A program made the translations under genes and the position numbers. From assembly GCA_900545315.1 (NCBI GenBank), contig UQYM01000003.1, forward strand, positions 31,657 through 95,656: a DNA stretch of 64,000 nt, in the 5' to 3' direction. Positions 29,135 through 57,080 of the stretch are shown here, in pieces (within the stretch, counting starts at the first letter, position 1; the number at the start of each line of letters is the position of its first letter). Source of the DNA: an uncultured Alistipes sp. (GTDB lineage: Bacteria; Bacteroidota; Bacteroidia; Bacteroidales; Rikenellaceae). The notes beneath the pieces were generated by a model. It did no database searches. It was not told where the DNA came from and was given only the letters and a program-made list of their open reading frames with translations.

Positions 29135-29508
29135 AAACACAGCAGGATGTATAAGCCGGGTTCTGTACCTTCAAGAAGGCCTCTGCCATTTATCTAGGCC
29201 GACGGTCACCCGTACGACTCATCAGCAACCTACCCCCCGACATCGGACGAGCAATCCTACTGCGTCGGTATACATGGTCTTGCAACCCGTCAGGCGTACG
29301 GCCAAAGTGTGTCACCACACCCGCGGTGGGCTCTTACCCCGCCTTTTCACCCTTACCGGAATCGCAAACAATCCCGGCGGTTATTCTCTGTTACACTACT
29401 ATTCCCTTACGGAAATCTTCCCGTTAGGAAGGACGGCGCTCTGTGTTGCCCGGACTTTCCTCCCCCTCCGATCCAACGGAGGCAGCGGCAGAGCCACCCT
29501 GCTGTGCG
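29135..29508 (-). ncRNA. rnpB: RNase P RNA (bacterial type A)
   Basis: The minus strand contains GGAGGAAAGTCCGGGC (P4 5' strand), GGTAAGGGTGAAAAGGCGGGGTAAGAGCCCACC (P10-P12 region) and ACAGAACCCGGCTTA (P4 3' strand). P1 pairing is CACAGCAGG / CCTGCTGTG. The ends are approximate (±5 nt). Confidence 0.8.
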
Positions 29509-32688: not shown

Positions 32689-33435
32689 AATATGAATAAG
32701 GTTTATTCGTAAAATCCAGGTAAAATGCGCCGACAGATACCGCAAGCCTCCTTATTCATCCATGACGGTGGGAAAGATGTCCGACCCCAAATAAACGGGC
32801 CAAACACCATAACCATTCTGTCCTCGCATTCGGTTATTCGTAACTGGCAGGTCTTCTGACTTACTCTCCTTCCCGAAGCCTTCCCAACACAACCGGAACG
32901 TGTCAGTGGCAACAGATTTTCGGGAAAATGCAATCGAGCTCACAGCAGCGGGACTGTTCGAGACTTTCACTCGATTCCCTTTTCATTCACAAGCGGTTAG
33001 CCGCTCTTTCGAAACCAATTACAGTGACAAATGTACCGCAATTTTTCATATCTCCAAAATTTCAAACAATTTTCAACCATCGGAAATCCAGACACAATCG
33101 TTGAATGCACATCTTGAGTGTTTTTTCCGTCAAAATGGCTTACTACGCCACTTAACGATCCTAAACTTCAATCCGTTATCAAATTGAATCATGCACCAAA
33201 GATCCACCACCATCAATTCCACTTGGCAGGTCAACACAAAACAAATTTCACTAGATCATCCCGATATAACAACCTATATTTTTACTTTAGTACAATTTAC
33301 GTAACATTAAATAGATCATCTACTTTAACATTTACTAAAAATATGATTACCCCCCAATTTTTCCCGTTCAAAAATCCTCATTGTCGATTTGTCAATCACA
33401 GGTAATCTCGCTACATTTACAACAAATTTCTTCCC

Positions 33436-48166: not shown

Positions 48167-49069
48167 ATGAGTTGGGACAAGGAGCTGAAAGATTATCGCT
48201 ATTATCTTTCATTGGAGAAAAAACTCTCCGAAAATACCGTGCAAGCCTACCTGCATGATCTGGCACGTATTTCCAATTATATGGAACACACTTTCGGCAT
48301 CACAGAGCCCGAAAAGGTAACAGCCGACCAGATCGAATCTTTTTTAGCCCACCTCTACGATACAGGTGTCGAGAAGGCTACCCAAGCCCGTGAATTGAGC
48401 GGCATCAAAAGTTTTTTCAACTATCTGATGCTCAACGACCGAATCGAAACAGCACCAACAGAATTCATCGAAGCCCCCAAAATCGGCCGAAAACTTCCCG
48501 ATGTACTTTCCGTGCAAGAGATCAACGCCGTAATCGGCTCGATCGATCTGAGCAGCCGTTTCGGCCATCGCAACAAAGCCATGCTCGAAACCCTATACAG
48601 TTGCGGGTTGCGGGTCAGTGAACTAATCACCCTGCGGATCAGCGATCTGTTTTTCACCGACGGTTTTATACGGGTAATCGGCAAAGGAGACAAACAACGC
48701 TTGGTCCCGATCAGTGAAACGGCCATCCGTCTGATCACCCTCTATCTCGAACAGCGCCGAACCATGCCGGTCGATGAATATTACGCCGATACGCTCTTCC
48801 TGAACAACAAAGGGAAACCGCTGACGCGTGTAATGGTCTTTCACATTATCCGCGAGTGCGCCAAAGCGGCCGGCATTACCAAAAAGATCAGCCCGCACAC
48901 CTTCCGCCACTCGTTTGCCACACACCTGCTTGAGGGCGGAGCCAGTATCCGTCAAGTGCAGGAGATGTTGGGACATGAATCGATCTTAACCACCGAGATC
49001 TACACCCATCTCGATAGCCGTAATTTACGGGACAGCGTCGAACAACACCATCCACTGTCCGATTATTGA
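48167..49069 (+). CDS. xerD: Tyrosine site-specific recombinase XerD
   Basis: Catalytic R..HxxR..Y (HTFRHSFATHLL ... IYTHL). Chromosomal dimer-resolution type with no flanking mobile-element features. Confidence 0.85.
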   Translation: MSWDKELKDYRYYLSLEKKLSENTVQAYLHDLARISNYMEHTFGITEPEKVTADQIESFLAHLYDTGVEKATQARELSGIKSFFNYLMLNDRIETAPTEFIEAPKIGRKLPDVLSVQEINAVIGSIDLSSRFGHRNKAMLETLYSCGLRVSELITLRISDLFFTDGFIRVIGKGDKQRLVPISETAIRLITLYLEQRRTMPVDEYYADTLFLNNKGKPLTRVMVFHIIRECAKAAGITKKISPHTFRHSFATHLLEGGASIRQVQEMLGHESILTTEIYTHLDSRNLRDSVEQHHPLSDY

Positions 49070-49466
49070 CTCCAACGGTTTAGGACTCTTACCACGCACT
49101 ACCTACTTCCTGAGGAAGGCCCTTACTGGCAAGAATCCACAGAGAAACCATCATACGTCTATAACCAGATAATGGGTCGCTCTCGGTTATCAGATATCAG
49201 AGTGCAGCATTCTCGTGTATTCACCAGTATGTCTGTTACTTCACATTACTCTGCGCAATCACTGCTCTGCAGGCCCACTGCTCACCCCGAAACACGGAAA
49301 TCGCAGGAATAAAACTGACATCCCCTTCTACTTCGGTATGGCATACGGAATGCTTGCAAAAAAAAATGAGCATCCGACAGACAGTAACTCAGATCTTTAC
49401 ATAGTCTAACACAAAAATTCAGAGAAAAAATTTATCAATAAAAGTACACTTTCACCTCAATTCATC

Positions 49467-49474
49467 TATATTTG
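49467..49474 (+). promoter_or_regulatory. Bacteroidota -7 promoter element TATATTTG upstream of the trp leader
   Basis: Matches TAnnTTTG. It lies 44 nt upstream of the leader-peptide ATG. Confidence 0.4.
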
Positions 49475-49517
49475 CTGCTGGAGGAATCAAGCAAAACTCC
49501 GTTCAAAACACAAGATT

Positions 49518-49580
49518 ATGAATCGCATCTCTATGAACATCAACTTTTGGTGGTGGCGCTCGCAACTATTCAAGTCGTGA
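49518..49580 (+). CDS. trp operon leader peptide (20 aa, MNRISMNINFWWWRSQLFKS) with three consecutive Trp codons
   Basis: ATG...TGG TGG TGG...TGA read directly. It sits between the promoter and the attenuator hairpin, 137 nt upstream of trpB. Confidence 0.65.
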   Translation: MNRISMNINFWWWRSQLFKS

Positions 49581-49637
49581 GTGTAAGATGCGTGTATATA
49601 CATTGATGAACTTTTAACAAGTAATCTTTTATATCGA

Positions 49638-49675
49638 GAAGCTGTCGAACTCACGACAGCTTCTCTTTTTTTGTG
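49638..49675 (+). terminator. trp attenuator: intrinsic terminator hairpin GAAGCTGTCG-AACTCA-CGACAGCTTC followed by TCTTTTTTTGTG
   Basis: 10-bp stem plus a U-tract, 40 nt upstream of trpB. The alternative pairing of leader segment GTCGTGAGT (49574-49582, includes the leader stop codon) with ACTCACGAC (49649-49657) would sequester the 3' half of the terminator. Confidence 0.7.
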
Positions 49676-49716
49676 CCATTTCAATCTCAGACAAACAACA
49701 AAACAATACCAATACG

Positions 49717-50919
49717 ATGAAGTACAACATTGACGAAAACGGTTACTACGGCCCCTTCGGCGGGGCGTACATCCCAGAGATCCTGTATGCGAATGTCGAA
49801 AATCTGCGCAAAAACTACCTGAAGGTGATGGCTGACCCCAGCTTCCAAAAAGAACTGGATAATCTGCTCCGCGATTACGTCGGACGTCCATCCCCCCTTT
49901 ATTATGCCAAACGTCTCTCCGAAAAATACGGTACCCGCGTTTACCTCAAACGTGAAGACCTGAACCATACCGGTGCCCATAAAATCAACAACACGTTGGG
50001 GCAGATTCTGTTGGCCCGTCGCATGGGCAAGAAACGGATCATCGCCGAAACCGGAGCCGGACAGCACGGTGTGGCCACCGCTACCGTATGCGCCCTGATG
50101 GATATGCCCTGCGTAGTCTATATGGGTGAGACCGATATTGCCCGTCAAAACCTCAACGTACAAAAGATGCAGATGCTGGGAGCAGAGGTTCGTTCCGTGA
50201 CCAGCGGTAACAAAACCCTCAAAGATGCCACCAATGAGGCGATCCGTGACTGGTGCTGCCACCCCGCCGATACCTACTACATCATCGGCTCAACGGTCGG
50301 TCCGCACCCCTATCCCGATATGGTTGCCCGCTTCCAATCGGTCATCAGCCGCGAGATCAAAAAACAGCTTCTCGAAAAGGAGGGGCGGGATTATCCCGAT
50401 TACCTGATTGCCTGCGTCGGAGGCGGAAGCAATGCAGCCGGGACCTTCTACGAATACCTCGAAGATGAGCGGGTACGGTTGATCGCTGCAGAGGCTGGCG
50501 GACTGGGAATCGACACCGACAAATCGGCTGCCACCATCCACCTGGGCCGAGATGGTATCATCCACGGCAGCCATACCTTGGTTATGCAGACCGAAGATGG
50601 TCAGATTCTCGAGCCCTACTCCATTTCGGCCGGCCTTGACTATCCGGGAATCGGACCACTGCACGCCCATCTGGCAGCCACTCACCGTTCGGAGGTGCTG
50701 GCCATCACCGACCAGCAGGCTGTCGATGCCGCTTTCGAAACCACCCGTCTCGAAGGAATCATTCCAGCCCTCGAATCGGCTCACGCCTTGGCCGTGCTCG
50801 GTTGCAAAAAATTCAATCCGAACGATGTGGTAGTCATCACCGTCTCTGGCCGTGGAGACAAAGATATGGAGACCTACGTCAAACTCTTTAACGCTCAAAA
50901 CCATGAAACCCGAAAATAA
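49717..50919 (+). CDS. trpB: Tryptophan synthase beta chain
   Basis: PLP lysine motif HTGAHKINN; GGGSNA. Confidence 0.95.
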
Positions 50920-52312
50920 AATCCAAATCATCGCCGAAAGCCGCACCTTTCTGGGCGACCTGCAAACCCCGGTGGGCATCTACCTGAAGGTCCGTGACCT
51001 CTTTCCCGAATCGGTGCTGCTCGAAAGCTCGGACTACCACACCTCCGAAAACAGCTACTCCTTCATTGGCGTAGAGCCCATCGCCCGCTTCACCGTAAAC
51101 GGAGATACCATTACCGAGGAGTTTCCCGACGGCAAGTCCGTTGATCTGACCATCGACAAAGATCACCCGCTGTGCGACCGGATGAACGACTTTCTGGCGC
51201 TGTTCAACGTCTCCGGCACCCCCGGACGCATCAACGGTCTTTTCGGATATACCTCGTACGATTGTGTCGCCCACTTCGAAAACGTACAGATCACCAAGCC
51301 ACAAATCGACCAGGTTCCGCAAATGGCCTACATCTTCTTTCGGTATGTCATCACGGTCAACCACATGCGGAACGAAATGACCGTCACCGAAAACCGTCCC
51401 ATCGACTCTCCTTCAGGCATCGACAACATGCTCAGCATCCTCAACAGTAAGAACTACGCCTCCTACGACTTCCATACCGTCGGCGAGATCACCTCTCCCA
51501 TCAGCGACGAACAGTACATGGAGATGGTTCGCAAAGGAATCAGTCACTGCCTGCGAGGCGATGTTTTCCAAATTGTGCTTTCACGGCGTTTCATGCAGGC
51601 CTTCCGGGGAGACGACTTCAAAGTATATCGGGCCCTACGTTCCATCAACCCCTCTCCCTACCTTTTCTATTTCGATTTCGGTTCGTACCGCATCTTTGGC
51701 TCGTCACCCGAAACCCACCTCAAAGTAATTGGCGATACCGCCACCATCGATCCCATCGCCGGCACCTTCCGCCGTACCGGAAACGACCAGGCCGACCACG
51801 AACTGGCTGTCAAACTACGCGACGATCCCAAAGAGAATGCCGAACATGTCATGTTGGTCGATCTGGCCCGCAATGACCTGAACCGCAACACAACCGGCGT
51901 CTATGTCAAATCCTACAAAGAGATTCAATTCTACTCACACGTTATTCACATGGTATCTCGCGTGTGCGGCCACGTCGCCCCGGATACCAACCGTATCCGA
52001 CTCTTCGCCGACACCTTCCCGGCCGGCACCCTTTCGGGAGCTCCGAAAGTTCGGGCGATGCAGCTGATCGACGAAATCGAAAGCCACGCCCGTGGAGTTT
52101 ATGGCGGTTGCATCGGCTACATCGGGTTCGACAACACCCTCAACCACGCCATTACGATCCGTACCTTCCTCAGCCGCGATAATGTGCTGCACTTTCAGGC
52201 CGGTGCGGGAATCGTCGCCAAATCGGACCCGCACAACGAACTGATGGAGGGCAAAGGCAAATTGGGAGCCCTGCGCAAAGCAATTCAAATGGCCGAAGAA
52301 CTGAAAAATTAA
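50902..52312 (+). CDS. trpE: Anthranilate synthase component I
   Basis: Chorismate-binding C-domain ([17 protein letters not shown]). The start MKPENKIQ overlaps the trpB 3' end by 18 bp. Confidence 0.9.
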
Positions 52313-52332: not shown

Positions 52333-52899
52333 ATGAAACTGTTGGTTTTTGACAATTACGACTCCTTTACATACAACATCGTACAGCTGCTGCGCGAAGC
52401 AGGTATCGATCAGATCACGGTTGCCCGCAACGACCAAATCGCACTGGAAAAGATCGCCGATTTTGACAAGATTGTGCTCTCCCCCGGACCCGGTATTCCC
52501 TCCGAAGCTGGATTGTTGCTTCCCCTGATTCGGGAATATGCCCCCAGCAAAAGCATTCTGGGAATCTGCCTCGGCGAACAGGCCATCGGCGAAGCCTTCG
52601 GGGCCACACTCTCCAACCTCAAAGAGGTCTATCACGGCATCGCCAGTCAGATCCACGTCGTCGCTCCCGATCCACTGTTTGCAGGACTGCCCGAAACCTT
52701 CGAAGCGGGTCGATACCACAGCTGGATCGTCGATAAGGAGAACTTCCCCGAAGAGCTCGAAATCACGGCCGAAGATGACAACGGTCGAATCATGGCCCTG
52801 GCTCATCGACGATACGATGTGCGAGGCCTACAGTTTCACCCCGAATCGGTGCTCACGCCCGTCAGCCGTTCGCTGATTGAGAACTGGCTGAAGGCATAA
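52333..52899 (+). CDS. trpG: Anthranilate synthase component II (glutamine amidotransferase)
   Basis: Class I GATase, GICLGEQAIGEAFG catalytic Cys region. Confidence 0.9.
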   Translation: MKLLVFDNYDSFTYNIVQLLREAGIDQITVARNDQIALEKIADFDKIVLSPGPGIPSEAGLLLPLIREYAPSKSILGICLGEQAIGEAFGATLSNLKEVYHGIASQIHVVAPDPLFAGLPETFEAGRYHSWIVDKENFPEELEITAEDDNGRIMALAHRRYDVRGLQFHPESVLTPVSRSLIENWLKA

Positions 52900-53042
52900 C
52901 CACTCCAAGGGCCTCCCTCCGTTGGGGAATGATTCTCCTAACGTGCTCAATCCATCTGATCAAACCAATGGAAGATCGTCATTCTCTACACCCGAACACA
53001 ACAACTATCCCTTTACCCTCAACATCTATTTAACAGCAAACC

Positions 53043-54038
53043 ATGAAAAATCTACTATACAGACTCTTCGAAAACAGCTATCTCGACCGGGATGAGGCCC
53101 GTGACGTGCTGATCCGCATGGCACACGGCCAATACAACGACAGTCAGATCGCCGCCTTTATCACCGTGTTCCTGATGCGCAGCATCACCCTCAACGAACT
53201 GGCCGGATTCCGGGAAGCGCTGCTCGAGATGCGTGTACCGGTCGATCTCTCGGAGTTCAATGCTATCGATATCGTCGGAACCGGTGGCGACAACAAAAAC
53301 ACCTTTAACATCTCCACAGCTGCCTGCGTCGTAACTGCAGCAGCAGGCTATCCGGTCATCAAACACGGTAACTACGGAGCCACCTCCGTCAGCGGTTCAT
53401 CAAACGTGATCGAGGCTCATGGCGTGAAGTTCACGCGCGATACCGACCAGCTCAAACGGTCACTCGAAGGGTGCAACATGGCCTTCCTCCATGCTCAGTT
53501 CTTCAACCCGGCCCTCAAAGCCGTCGCCCCGGTTCGAAAAGCCCTCGGCGTCCGTACCTTCTTCAACATCCTGGGCCCGCTGGTCAACCCCTCACTGCCA
53601 CATCACCAGCTGCTCGGCGTCTATAACCTGAAGCTGGGACGTCTCTACAACTACCTCTACCAGCAGACCGACACCCGATATACAATCGTCACCACACTGG
53701 ATGGCTACGACGAAATTTCGCTCACAGACGACTTCAAAGTCTTCTCCAACGACGGGGAGATGATCGTCTCTCCCGAAGAGATCGGCATGACCCGTTGTAC
53801 GGAACAGGATCTCAGCGGCGGCGCCAGCGTAGCTGAGGCGGCCGCCATCTTCGACAAGGTGTTGGACAACACGGCAACCCCCGCACAAAAAAATGCCGTT
53901 GCGGTAAATGCCGCCTACGCCATCCACAATTTCGAACCTCAACGGCCTATTACGGAGTGTATTGCCCAGGCCCTTGAAACCATCGAGAGCGGACGGGCAA
54001 AGGCCACCTTCCGTAAATTTGTCGAATTGAACTCCTAA
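53043..54038 (+). CDS. trpD: Anthranilate phosphoribosyltransferase
   Basis: GTGGDNKNTFNISTAA motif. Confidence 0.9.
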   Translation: MKNLLYRLFENSYLDRDEARDVLIRMAHGQYNDSQIAAFITVFLMRSITLNELAGFREALLEMRVPVDLSEFNAIDIVGTGGDNKNTFNISTAACVVTAAAGYPVIKHGNYGATSVSGSSNVIEAHGVKFTRDTDQLKRSLEGCNMAFLHAQFFNPALKAVAPVRKALGVRTFFNILGPLVNPSLPHHQLLGVYNLKLGRLYNYLYQQTDTRYTIVTTLDGYDEISLTDDFKVFSNDGEMIVSPEEIGMTRCTEQDLSGGASVAEAAAIFDKVLDNTATPAQKNAVAVNAAYAIHNFEPQRPITECIAQALETIESGRAKATFRKFVELNS

Positions 54039-54863
54039 ATGCTCCCTTCCATGAATATCCTCGAACAGATCCTCGCCACCAAACAGCAGGAGGTGGCCGC
54101 TGCCAGAAAACAGAAATCTCTGGCCGCACTCGAAGCCGAAGCCACAGCCACTACACGCCGAGCCTACTCGTTGCGTGCAGCGCTGCTTGGTTCGCAGACG
54201 GGTATTATCGCCGAGTTCAAACGTAAATCGCCCTCAAAAGGCTTTATCAAAGAGCATGCAGAGGTAACCTCCATCACCACCGGATATGCACAGGCCGGAG
54301 CTGCGGCCCTCTCCATTCTGACCGACCGAGACTACTTTGCCGGCGATCTGAACGACTTGCAGGAGGCACGGCCTCACCTGTCCATTCCCATCCTGAGGAA
54401 AGATTTTATCATCGATCCCTACCAGATCTGTCAAGCACGGATTGCCGGAGCCGATGCCATTTTGCTGATTGCTGCAGCGCTTACACCGGGACAGGTCGAA
54501 CGTCTAGCCGCATATGCCCACGCACTTGGGCTGGAGGTATTGCTTGAGATACACCGCGCAGAGGAGTTGGATGCCCTGTGCAACTCGGTGGATGTAGTCG
54601 GCGTCAACAACCGCGATCTGACCACCTTTCACACCGATCCGGCACAATCTTTTGCACTGATCCAACACATTCCGCAACAGTTTGTCAAAATTTCGGAAAG
54701 CGGGCTTGCCGATCCTCAGACCGTTGCCCAGCTGTGTCAAGCAGGATTCAACGGATTCCTGATGGGCGAACGTTTTATGAAGACGGCCGACCCGGCTGCC
54801 GCCCTGCAAACGTTTATTCAAGAGCTGACCCACTGCAACTCCCATAACGAGTCCCGATCATGA
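54039..54863 (+). CDS. trpC: Indole-3-glycerol phosphate synthase
   Basis: IIAEFKRKSPSKG and VLLEIH motifs. Confidence 0.9.
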   Translation: MLPSMNILEQILATKQQEVAAARKQKSLAALEAEATATTRRAYSLRAALLGSQTGIIAEFKRKSPSKGFIKEHAEVTSITTGYAQAGAAALSILTDRDYFAGDLNDLQEARPHLSIPILRKDFIIDPYQICQARIAGADAILLIAAALTPGQVERLAAYAHALGLEVLLEIHRAEELDALCNSVDVVGVNNRDLTTFHTDPAQSFALIQHIPQQFVKISESGLADPQTVAQLCQAGFNGFLMGERFMKTADPAAALQTFIQELTHCNSHNESRS

Positions 54864-55489
54864 AAATCAAAATTTGTGGCATGCGTGAACCGGACAACAT
54901 CCGGCAGGTGACCGACCTTCACCCGGACTACATGGGATTTATCTTCTGGTCCGGCTCTCCGCGTAATGCCTGCCAACTCGATCCTGCAGCCCTCGCCACA
55001 GTACCACAAACCATTCGACGGGTCGGCGTCTTTGTCAACGAAACCGAAGAGCAGGTCATCCGTACCGCACAGAGATACCGACTCGATCTGGTCCAACTGC
55101 ACGGACATGAGTCGCCCGAAACCTGCCGGCGGATCAACCGAATCGTTCCGGTGATCAAAGCTCTCTCCGTAGCCACCCAGACCGATCTGGAACAGACTCA
55201 ACGCTATCAGGATTGCTGCTCAATCCTGCTGTTGGACACCAAGACCCCCACATACGGCGGTTCGGGACAACAGTTCGACTGGAGCCTGCTCGAACACTAC
55301 ACCGGCCCTCTCCCCTTCCTGCTCAGTGGAGGCATCGGACCTCAAGATGCCAAACGGCTTCTCGGCCTAAGACATCACGCACTACTGGGTTTCGATCTAA
55401 ACAGTCGTTTTGAAAGCGCTCCGGGACACAAAGAGTACAACTTGCTCAAACCATTTATCGAACAATTCAAAAAACAGAACCATGAATAG
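54860..55489 (+). CDS. trpF: Phosphoribosylanthranilate isomerase
   Basis: KICGMREPDN start. TIM barrel. 4-bp overlap with trpC. Confidence 0.85.
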   Translation: MKIKICGMREPDNIRQVTDLHPDYMGFIFWSGSPRNACQLDPAALATVPQTIRRVGVFVNETEEQVIRTAQRYRLDLVQLHGHESPETCRRINRIVPVIKALSVATQTDLEQTQRYQDCCSILLLDTKTPTYGGSGQQFDWSLLEHYTGPLPFLLSGGIGPQDAKRLLGLRHHALLGFDLNSRFESAPGHKEYNLLKPFIEQFKKQNHE

Positions 55490-56255
55490 AATAGATCATC
55501 TTTTTCAAGTCAAAACTTCAGGCATTGTATCGGTTTACTTCACGGCCGGATACCCCAAATTGGACGATACCACCGAGATCATCCGTGCACTTGCTGCACG
55601 CGGTACTGATCTGATCGAAATCGGCGTCCCCTTTTCCGATCCGATGGCCGACGGTAAAACCATTCAAAACAGCAGTACTGTTGCATTAAAGAACGGCATG
55701 ACCATGAAAAAGCTGTTCGAACAGCTGAAAGATATTCGTCAGGATGTAACCATACCGTTGATTTTAATGGGCTATCTCAACCCCGTCATGCAGTATGGCA
55801 TCGAACACTTTTGCCAAAGCTGCGCAGAGATCGGGATTGACGGCGTTATTCTGCCCGACCTTCCGTTGAACGACTACCTGCGAGACTTCAAACCACTGGC
55901 CGATAAATATGACCTGCGTTTCACCATGCTGATTACTCCCGAAACCTCGGACGAACGCATCAAACTGATCGATCAACACACCAACGGTTTCATCTATATG
56001 GTCTCCACAGCGGCCACCACCGGTACGCAAGACCATTTCTCCGATAGTACCATCCAGTATTTCGAACGGATCAACACCATGAAACTGCGCAATCCTCGCC
56101 TGATCGGATTTGGTATCTCCAACCCGGAAACACTGCAAGCGGCCCAACAACATGCCGCCGGTGCAATTATCGGCAGCGGTTTCATCAAAACGCTCGACTC
56201 CACCTCCACCATTCCTCAGGCTGTTGAAAAGCTGTACCACCAATTAGGATTATAA
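55482..56255 (+). CDS. trpA: Tryptophan synthase alpha chain
   Basis: IEIGVPFSDPMADG motif. Start chosen at MNRIDHLF with an 8-bp overlap with trpF; the track's upstream Met is rejected. Confidence 0.9.
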   Translation: MNRIDHLFQVKTSGIVSVYFTAGYPKLDDTTEIIRALAARGTDLIEIGVPFSDPMADGKTIQNSSTVALKNGMTMKKLFEQLKDIRQDVTIPLILMGYLNPVMQYGIEHFCQSCAEIGIDGVILPDLPLNDYLRDFKPLADKYDLRFTMLITPETSDERIKLIDQHTNGFIYMVSTAATTGTQDHFSDSTIQYFERINTMKLRNPRLIGFGISNPETLQAAQQHAAGAIIGSGFIKTLDSTSTIPQAVEKLYHQLGL

Positions 56256-56439: not shown

Positions 56440-57018
56440 ATGAAAAAATTACTTTTTCTCGTTCTGGGGCTGGCAGGCTTGTGTACGGCAGCGTCGGCTC
56501 AAACCGGTTTCGGCTGGGGTGTTAAAGGTGGTCTGAATTTAACCGGTGCAACGAACCTCGGAGATAATACTCAAACTAAAACGGGCATAGTAGTAGGTGC
56601 TTTTGCGGACTATCGCTTCACCGATCATTTCGCACTGTCTGCTGATGTACTTTATTCTCGTCAAGGCGCTAGCATGGGTAAAAACGATGAGGGTGTTCGT
56701 ATCAAAGGTAGATTAAACTATTTGAACGTTCCTATTTTGGCCAACTATTATATCATTGGAGGCTTAGCTGTTAAAGCAGGTATTCAACCTGGTTTCTTAT
56801 TAAGCAGCAAAAGAATTATCAAATATGATGGTAATACAGACAAAAGAAATATAGAAGGATTATCGGGTGCCGACTTCTCAATTCCTGTTGGCGTTTCGTA
56901 TGACTGCCCATTTGGTATCATTCTTGAAGCGCGCTATAATATTGGTGTAACCAACATCGATTCAGGAGGGTCCTCTCGCAATAGCGTATTCTCAATTATG
57001 GTCGGTTACCGATTCTAA
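56440..57018 (+). CDS. Outer-membrane beta-barrel (porin/OmpA-like beta-barrel domain) protein
   Basis: Signal peptide (LGLAGLCTAASAQ), alternating beta-strand pattern, and a C-terminal aromatic residue (YRF). Confidence 0.7.
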   Translation: MKKLLFLVLGLAGLCTAASAQTGFGWGVKGGLNLTGATNLGDNTQTKTGIVVGAFADYRFTDHFALSADVLYSRQGASMGKNDEGVRIKGRLNYLNVPILANYYIIGGLAVKAGIQPGFLLSSKRIIKYDGNTDKRNIEGLSGADFSIPVGVSYDCPFGIILEARYNIGVTNIDSGGSSRNSVFSIMVGYRF

Positions 57019-57040
57019 TAGACCGGTTCAAAATAAGATT

Positions 57041-57080
57041 AACAAGAGGTCGGAAATTTCCGACCTCTTGTTGTTTTGTT
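57041..57080 (+). terminator. Rho-independent terminator
   Basis: AACAAGAGGTCGG-AAATTT-CCGACCTCTTGTT followed by GTTTTGTT. Confidence 0.7.

Follow-up and report, generated by a model that had tools for sequence, protein, structure and literature searches.

The closest described relative of the element reported here is the Bacteroid-trp family of Rfam (RF01692), the 'Bacteroidete tryptophan peptide leader RNA', which was presumed to be a tryptophan (Trp) peptide leader that senses low tryptophan by attenuation, and for which no consensus diagram was given, the RNA being described as 'a loosely conserved hairpin' (Weinberg et al., 2010, Genome Biol 11:R31, PMC2864571). The RF01692 consensus comprises the leader start, a run of UGG codons, an outer stem and a 1:2 hairpin, and ends at the 5' arm of the terminator. 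We analyzed a stretch of 64,000 nucleotides (nt) from an uncultured Alistipes sp. (contig UQYM01000003.1; hereafter the window), in which positions 49460-49716, the final 257 nt of a 647-nt gap that leads from an integrase gene to trpB, carry a leader of this type. In our sequence analyses, we observed a leader open reading frame (ORF), three RNA helices with their conservation and covariation, and the trp operon itself, and we consider it highly probable that the whole is a ribosome-mediated transcription attenuator of trpBEGDCFA with three mutually exclusive RNA helices. Judged by sequence similarity, the leader is a divergent member of the Bacteroid-trp family and, being a homologue of RF01692, is not an unannotated novelty. 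Since Weinberg et al. gave the same reading, the kind of element and its presumed function have been public since 2010.

The original prediction for this region had proposed a 20-codon ORF with three tandem Trp codons, a TAnnTTTG promoter element 5' of it and an intrinsic terminator before trpB, and each of these is present in the window. The features of the leader are as follows, several of them taken from the minimum free energy (MFE) fold; A1, A2 and A3 are alignments of related loci that are described further below.

49467-49474, + strand: Bacteroidota-type -7 promoter motif TAnnTTTG (TATATTTG; TAtaTTTG), read directly, with a presumed promoter function
49518-49580, + strand: leader peptide ORF of 20 codons, MNRISMNINFWWWRSQLFKS, from ATG to TGA, by sequence reading
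49524-49530, + strand: 5' strand of the outer stem, CGCATCT, in the MFE fold, inside the leader ORF and paired with 49586-49592
49548-49556, + strand: TGG TGG TGG, the proposed ribosome stall site, in near-invariant columns of A1, A2 and A3
49556-49567, + strand: segment 1, 5' strand of the anti-antiterminator in the MFE fold, whose first base is the last base of the third Trp codon
49573-49584, + strand: segment 2, 3' strand of the 1:2 hairpin in the MFE fold, of which 49574-49582 (GTCGTGAGT) is also the 5' strand of the antiterminator
49586-49592, + strand: 3' strand of the outer stem, AGATGCG, in the MFE fold
49636-49665, + strand: intrinsic terminator hairpin, with its 5' arm at 49636-49647, loop at 49648-49653 (AACTCA) and 3' arm at 49654-49665
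49649-49657, + strand: 3' strand of the antiterminator, ACTCACGAC, made of five loop bases and the four bases that open the terminator 3' arm
49666-49672, + strand: T7 tract of the terminator, ending 44 nt before the trpB ATG (49717)

The MFE fold of 49518-49680 reaches -49.3 kcal/mol (z -4.27 against shuffles), and its outer stem matches the outer helix of the RF01692 consensus. In the window copy, the 1:2 hairpin contributes -13.3 kcal/mol, or -19.0 kcal/mol together with the outer stem, while the terminator amounts to -21.6 kcal/mol and the antiterminator of nine base pairs (bp), taken alone, to -12.45 kcal/mol. The terminator stem (GAGAAGCTGTCG/CGACAGCTTCTC) was found to have 12 pairs, seven of them G-C, rather than the 10 bp first proposed, and the distance from the T tract to trpB, given originally as 40 nt, had to be corrected to the 44 nt listed above; a consensus scan found this hairpin to be the sole terminator-like site in 48500-51000. 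The leader stop codon (TGA, 49578-49580) lies within segment 2 and is overlapped by GTCGTGAGT (49574-49582), which is, as had been predicted, the exact reverse complement of ACTCACGAC (49649-49657). The accompanying statement that ACTCACGAC forms the loop and the 3' half of the terminator is accurate for the loop (five of its six bases) and too generous for the 3' arm, of which only the first four of 12 bases are included. Bases 49654-49657 are common to the antiterminator and the terminator, and because segment 2 is likewise common to the 1:2 hairpin and the antiterminator, the arrangement has the classical 1:2 / 2:3 / 3:4 layout. The two-helix logic of the original prediction was therefore right as to the antiterminator and the terminator and incomplete in that it omitted the covarying 1:2 anti-antiterminator, which is needed to explain termination without a stall. 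An alternative in-frame ATG of the leader ORF is found at 49533.

Relatives were collected with the TrpB protein as query against one genome per species of Bacteroidota, which yielded 80 loci, 71-81% identical to the query. Nearly all of them are from Bacteroidales, beginning with Rikenellaceae (79-81% identity) and followed by Alistipes, Prevotella, Bacteroides, Parabacteroides, Dysgonomonas and Paludibacter, and two are from Flavobacterium. Alignment A2 comprises 55 of these relatives, including four Rfam-positive loci, with the window left out, and from it we built a covariance model (R1) whose structure contains the 1:2 hairpin and the terminator only. In the 64 kb, R1 had one significant match, at 49545-49671 (79.6 bits, E 6.6e-14), and it located the leader element in 70 of the 80 loci. 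The only other R1 match there, at 56937-57077 on the + strand (16.2 bits, E 0.11), spans the 3' end of an outer-membrane beta-barrel gene (56440-57018) and the sequence downstream of it, and is probably just a terminator-like hairpin.

RF01692 itself reached its gathering score in four of the 20 related loci scanned (L024 from Parabacteroides sp. 52, L042, L046 from Bacteroides luti, and L062), and the R1 matches overlap there; the window copy, in comparison, went undetected by RF01692 at E <= 10 in 48800-50200 and at gathering (49 bits) across the whole window. This miss was entertained as a hint of a new element, an idea that the RF01692 matches in the relatives and the R1 match to the window overturned. 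The RF01692 seed appears to be too narrow for Rikenellaceae, Prevotella, and other Bacteroidales, and the Bacteroid-trp leader is far commoner in Bacteroidales than the Rfam model would suggest: R1 recovers it in 70 of 80 trpB loci, Rfam in four of 20. The retention of the element also bears on the simplest alternative, namely, that a small ORF and a stand-alone hairpin without any regulatory role co-occur here by chance. The string TGGTGGTGG is present in three copies in the 64 kb, with 0.57 expected, and would be unremarkable alone; however, conservation in 70 of 80 loci, an E of 6.6e-14 from a model built without the window, and three covarying helices refute chance co-occurrence, to which we assign practically no probability.

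A comparison of trpB upstream regions had been suggested as a check on the original prediction, and its outcome is in agreement with it: in 67 of the 80 relatives, a short ORF with in-frame WW(W) lies 5' of trpB (e.g., the leader peptides MNTFCANTYWWWRSQLPRVVNS and MKRLMNAWWWRSSGLK), and the alternative pairing is conserved with compensatory changes. The promoter motif proved to be widespread as well: in 55 of the 67 loci, TAnnTTTG lies no more than 160 nt ahead of the Trp run, the background rate being 0.063 per 160 nt. Across the family, the motif clusters 55-69 nt upstream of the second TGG; in the window, it stands 84 nt upstream, ∼20-25 nt farther than the family cluster, which would give the window copy a longer 5' untranslated region. 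The position of the stop codon in the antiterminator arm, correctly predicted for the window, is a property of this copy rather than of the family, where the stop falls 5-17 codons past the Trp run and always at or beyond segment 2. Where no leader was found, a further same-strand ORF immediately precedes trpB or the contig is cut. In five loci, L044, L079 (Flavobacterium), L010, L031, and L075, a same-strand ORF directly precedes trpB and no WWW leader adjoins trpB; a leader in these loci would have to precede the first gene of the operon.

The composition of the leader peptides allows another kind of control to be weighed, in which the nascent peptide would sense free tryptophan in the ribosome tunnel and arrest the ribosome in the manner of TnaC. 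Many leaders do share the WWWR motif and an Asn placed two to three residues ahead of it, as might suit an arrest peptide. Nevertheless, beyond the Trp run the residues track the RNA pairing and not a peptide motif, since the codon after the run is the Arg codon CGC or CGT in 53 of 67 loci and belongs to segment 1, with TGC, CTT, CAC, and CAA among the alternatives, and the length of the peptide past the run varies from 5 to 17 codons. Moreover, sensing of the TnaC type switches expression on in response to available tryptophan, the opposite of what a biosynthetic operon calls for. Taken together, a TnaC-like arrest is very improbable for this family.

Support for the helices came from alignment A3, which was fitted to model R1 and covers 70 related Bacteroidales loci. 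For the 1:2 hairpin and the terminator together, 90.8% of the cells in A3 are paired, and 191 cells have changed on both sides, in comparison to 54.5 +/- 7.6 in shuffles and 24-61 with slid partners. The 1:2 helix alone has 81.7% of its cells paired with both-side changes in seven of its eight core pairs, and the terminator has 98.3% of its cells paired across the family with both-side changes in 10 of 11 pairs. The antiterminator, to which A3 was not fitted because this helix is absent from the structure of R1, has 80.2% of its cells paired (25-54% with slid partners), and 62 of its cells have changed on both sides vs. 29.4 +/- 3.7 in shuffles. All four pairs that involve terminator-loop bases covary, with counts of UA 38 / CG 17 / UG 9 and GC 43 / GU 12 / AU 8 for two of them and of AU 42 / GC 9 and GC 40 / GU 4 / AU 3 for the other two. 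The terminator itself cannot account for the covariation of these loop pairs. The MAFFT alignment A1 gave the same picture of covariation for the antiterminator and the 1:2 helix. Compensatory pairs are also evident by eye in loci L004 (GTCGTGAAT/ATTCACGAC), L009 (GTCGTGAAC/GTTCACGAC), L035 of Alistipes timonensis (GTTGTGAGTG/TACTCACAAC), and L012 (CGGTGTG/CACACCG) and in the Prevotella group (GTCGCGG/CTGCGAC).

The RNA structures alone would fit any factor that frees or holds segment 2, and the 1:2 hairpin together with segment 2 is kept in both sequence and structure (GTCGTGAG consensus). Conceivably, then, a trans-acting sensor of Trp could bind the leader hairpin and choose between antiterminator and terminator, be it TRAP-like or another RNA-binding protein, or an uncharged tRNA as in the T-box. 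However, 67 loci keep the Trp codons in one frame with a start and a stop codon, and segment 1 begins exactly where the Trp run ends, a geometry that a ribosome footprint would predict. In addition, neither the T-box nor any other Rfam family matched at E <= 10 in 48800-50200, and the (G/U)AG triplets, which in a TRAP site form a series at spacings of 2-3 nt, number three in 242 nt, with a longest run of 0. A trans-acting factor is hence quite unlikely as the sensor, and ribosome-mediated attenuation is the reading that we follow.

Alignment-free tests of the antiterminator were in accordance with the covariation. In a swap test, segment 2 paired with its own loop and upper 3' arm at a mean of -11.10 kcal/mol, compared to -8.26 +/- 0.31 kcal/mol with the terminators of other species, and none of 5000 permutations was as low as the native combination. 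The complementarity of segment 2 and the loop exceeds that of shuffles with a mean z of -3.55 (88% of loci below -2), the window copy standing at -16.0 kcal/mol and z -5.0. When segment 1 was masked and the RNA ended 5 nt into the 3' arm, the antiterminator was in the MFE structure of 55 of 57 loci. The mutual exclusion of antiterminator and terminator in the original prediction is borne out to the extent that the pairing is conserved, has compensatory changes, and co-evolves with its own terminator. An additional helix between the region just past segment 2 and the 5' arm of the terminator, suggested by single folds, was rejected, as it stood at the chance level (mean z -0.22) and had no co-evolution in the swap test. 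The pairing of segment 2 with the loop is the only alternative pairing above chance.

From these elements the following course of events can be proposed. Transcription would start just 3' of TAnnTTTG, and the leader RNA would be translated into a 20-residue peptide with three consecutive Trp codons. With Trp-tRNA plentiful, the ribosome would reach the stop codon (49578-49580) within segment 2 and mask this segment, or alternatively it would release at the stop and allow segment 1 (49556-49567) to re-pair with segment 2 (49573-49584); by either route, the 12-bp terminator (49636-49665 and T7) would form and transcription would end 44 nt before trpB. With Trp-tRNA scarce, a ribosome stalled on the Trp codons would cover segment 1 and leave segment 2 free. 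The footprint of a ribosome extends roughly 12-15 nt past the A site, and it is on this account that segment 1 should be covered by a stalled ribosome. As the terminator loop emerged from the polymerase, segment 2 would pair with the loop and the adjoining four bases of the 3' arm (49649-49657), and this capture would remove the apical nucleus of the terminator so that the polymerase could read through into trpB. We infer here the stalling of the ribosome, the sufficiency of loop and upper-arm capture against termination, and the response to tryptophan.

Several observations weigh against this mechanism. The comparison of folding energies that had been suggested to check the original prediction did return a leader fold far better than that of shuffles (z -4.27), yet at equilibrium the terminator state is favored by about 9 kcal/mol and the probability of the antiterminator is near 0. 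With the terminator stronger by ∼9 kcal/mol, the switch could be kinetic only, and the read-through step is one that we infer. The E. coli trp attenuator is likewise under kinetic control with a weaker antiterminator. The antiterminator displaces only the loop and four of the 12 stem pairs, and in principle the remaining lower 8 bp might still pair as a pseudoknot, which is beyond the reach of nested-structure tools. No pairing that sequesters the 5' arm of the terminator was supported (z -0.22; swap test without signal). An argument that the lower stem is sterically impossible once the antiterminator has formed was dropped, as reasoning alone leaves room for a pseudoknot with a 5-nt connecting loop. 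A nested-structure path search gave a barrier of about 20 kcal/mol, which is an upper bound only because pseudoknotted routes are ignored. When free, segment 2 of the window copy can also fold with the downstream sequence into a local hairpin of -9 kcal/mol before the terminator is made, and this hairpin could compete with the antiterminator. RNAalifold on shortened alignments did not recover the long-range antiterminator helix, an outcome to which we give no weight, as the long spacer aligns poorly. Finally, no experimental study of the Bacteroid-trp family was found in the literature searched.

Some of these observations would equally suit a real leader ORF whose control does not pass through a loop-capturing antiterminator, for instance, control by Rho or translation-linked polarity, or a pairing that serves RNA stability or a pseudoknot that tunes the terminator. 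The use of four of the 12 stem pairs with the 5' arm untouched, the preference of about 9 kcal/mol for the terminator at equilibrium, and the compatibility of a pseudoknot that retains the lower stem are all points in its favor. It is countered by the pairing of segment 2 and the loop, which is the sole alternative pairing above chance and co-evolves with the terminator, by the sharing of segment 2 between the 1:2 hairpin and the antiterminator, as the logic of attenuation demands, and by the strong intrinsic terminator and its T7 tract; in the E. coli trp attenuator, too, control is as a rule kinetic and the antiterminator the weaker structure. We therefore regard control of this other kind as unlikely and retain attenuation by a translating ribosome.

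Within the attenuation reading, the family may use a loop-capture antiterminator that is mechanistically distinct from the classical one, in that segment 2 pairs with the loop of the terminator and the 4-6 bases at the start of its 3' arm and never with the 5' arm; we put this forward tentatively, as a possibility short of an even chance. To our knowledge, the geometry of loop and upper 3' arm differs from the classical attenuator design. If the proposal were true, the decision would fall within the few nt that are transcribed after the loop emerges and before the T tract ends, and the conformer that is read through would topologically be the first helix of a pseudoknot and not an alternative hairpin. 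Bacteroidota would then hold a distinct, independently evolved form of leader-peptide attenuation that is absent from the current Rfam model and its description.

The setting of the leader was as the original prediction had it, with Pfam confirming the operon as trpBEGDCFA, in the gene order trpB-E-G-D-C-F-A and all on the + strand. The genes that surround the leader are as follows.

48167-49069: XerD-like integrase gene (Pfam Phage_integrase)
49717-50919, + strand: trpB, tryptophan synthase beta (Pfam PALP, 1.3e-44), first gene of the regulated operon
50903-52312, + strand: trpE (Pfam), with a start refined from gene calls on same-species contigs
52333-52899, + strand: trpG (Pfam)
53043-54038, + strand: trpD (Pfam)
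54039-54863, + strand: trpC (Pfam)
54860-55489, + strand: trpF (Pfam)
about 55482-56255, + strand: trpA (Pfam), with a presumed start

The same leader was found, identical, in four independent metagenome assemblies of the same species, with one single-nucleotide polymorphism 3' of the T tract, and this identity excludes an assembly artifact. The gap of ∼647 nt between the integrase gene and trpB is likewise present in the same-species contigs. The leader ORF was not reported by any gene caller in these contigs, as had been anticipated for an unannotated leader, and an antisense ORF of 134 amino acids at 49487-49891 (- strand), which overlaps the leader and the start of trpB, is most likely spurious, again as proposed, because it overlaps a well-supported gene and a conserved RNA element.

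Other observations concern the surroundings of the leader. In the ∼400 nt at 49070-49466 that separate the XerD-like integrase gene from the trp promoter motif, no Rfam match was found, and none of the 80 related loci has, in the corresponding place, a sequence similar to the upstream region 49070-49520. Within the operon, which is otherwise tightly packed, trpG and trpD are separated by 143 nt (52900-53042) with no obvious hairpin or terminator by eye. Farther away in the window, the Rfam gathering scan identified a bacterial RNase P RNA of class A at 29136-29504 (- strand, 245.8 bits) and a Cobalamin riboswitch aptamer at 32829-33034 (- strand, 104.9 bits).

In essence, a working-looking tryptophan sensor stands before the trp operon of an uncultured gut bacterium resembling Rikenellaceae. 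Leader-peptide attenuation is textbook biology and has already been proposed in Bacteroidota, so no new question is opened by the element as such. What the description of 2010 lacked is a three-helix model with covariation support for each helix, the antiterminator included, and this model pinpoints bases for mutation in a cultured relative, for example, Alistipes or Bacteroides.

The likenesses and differences to the known systems can be set out as follows. The T-box and TRAP trp leaders of Firmicutes share with the window leader a choice between an antiterminator and an intrinsic terminator 5' of trp genes, but they sense uncharged tRNA or the TRAP protein and not a translating ribosome. Leaders of RF01692 stand 5' of trpB or trpE in Bacteroidota and have at least two conserved UGG codons inside a short ORF. 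In keeping with this, the window element lies 5' of trpB in a member of Bacteroidota, 44 nt from trpB, and has a run of three such codons inside a short ORF, and its outer stem and 1:2 hairpin match the consensus layout seen on L046; unlike the description of RF01692, the model for the window adds an antiterminator that covaries and in which segment 2 pairs with the loop of the terminator and the upper part of its 3' arm. By the measures of a classical attenuator, the sequence holds a Trp-rich leader ORF, an intrinsic terminator, a 1:2 helix, and an exclusive 2:3 helix, the last of which excludes only four pairs of the terminator.

With E. coli trpL (RF00513 Trp_leader, Yanofsky), the window leader shares tandem Trp codons beside segment 1, the 1:2, 2:3, and 3:4 alternatives, and a stop codon so positioned that a terminating ribosome would mask segment 2. 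RF00513 gave no match at E <= 10 in 48800-50200, and on present evidence from sequence the window leader would work like trpL, yet is not homologous to it. A terminator stronger than the antiterminator, with control that would be kinetic, is a further likeness, the E. coli side being general knowledge. The differences are that the window leader has three Trp codons instead of two, that its operon begins with trpB, and that the 3' strand of its antiterminator is the terminator loop with the top of the 3' arm and not the 5' arm.

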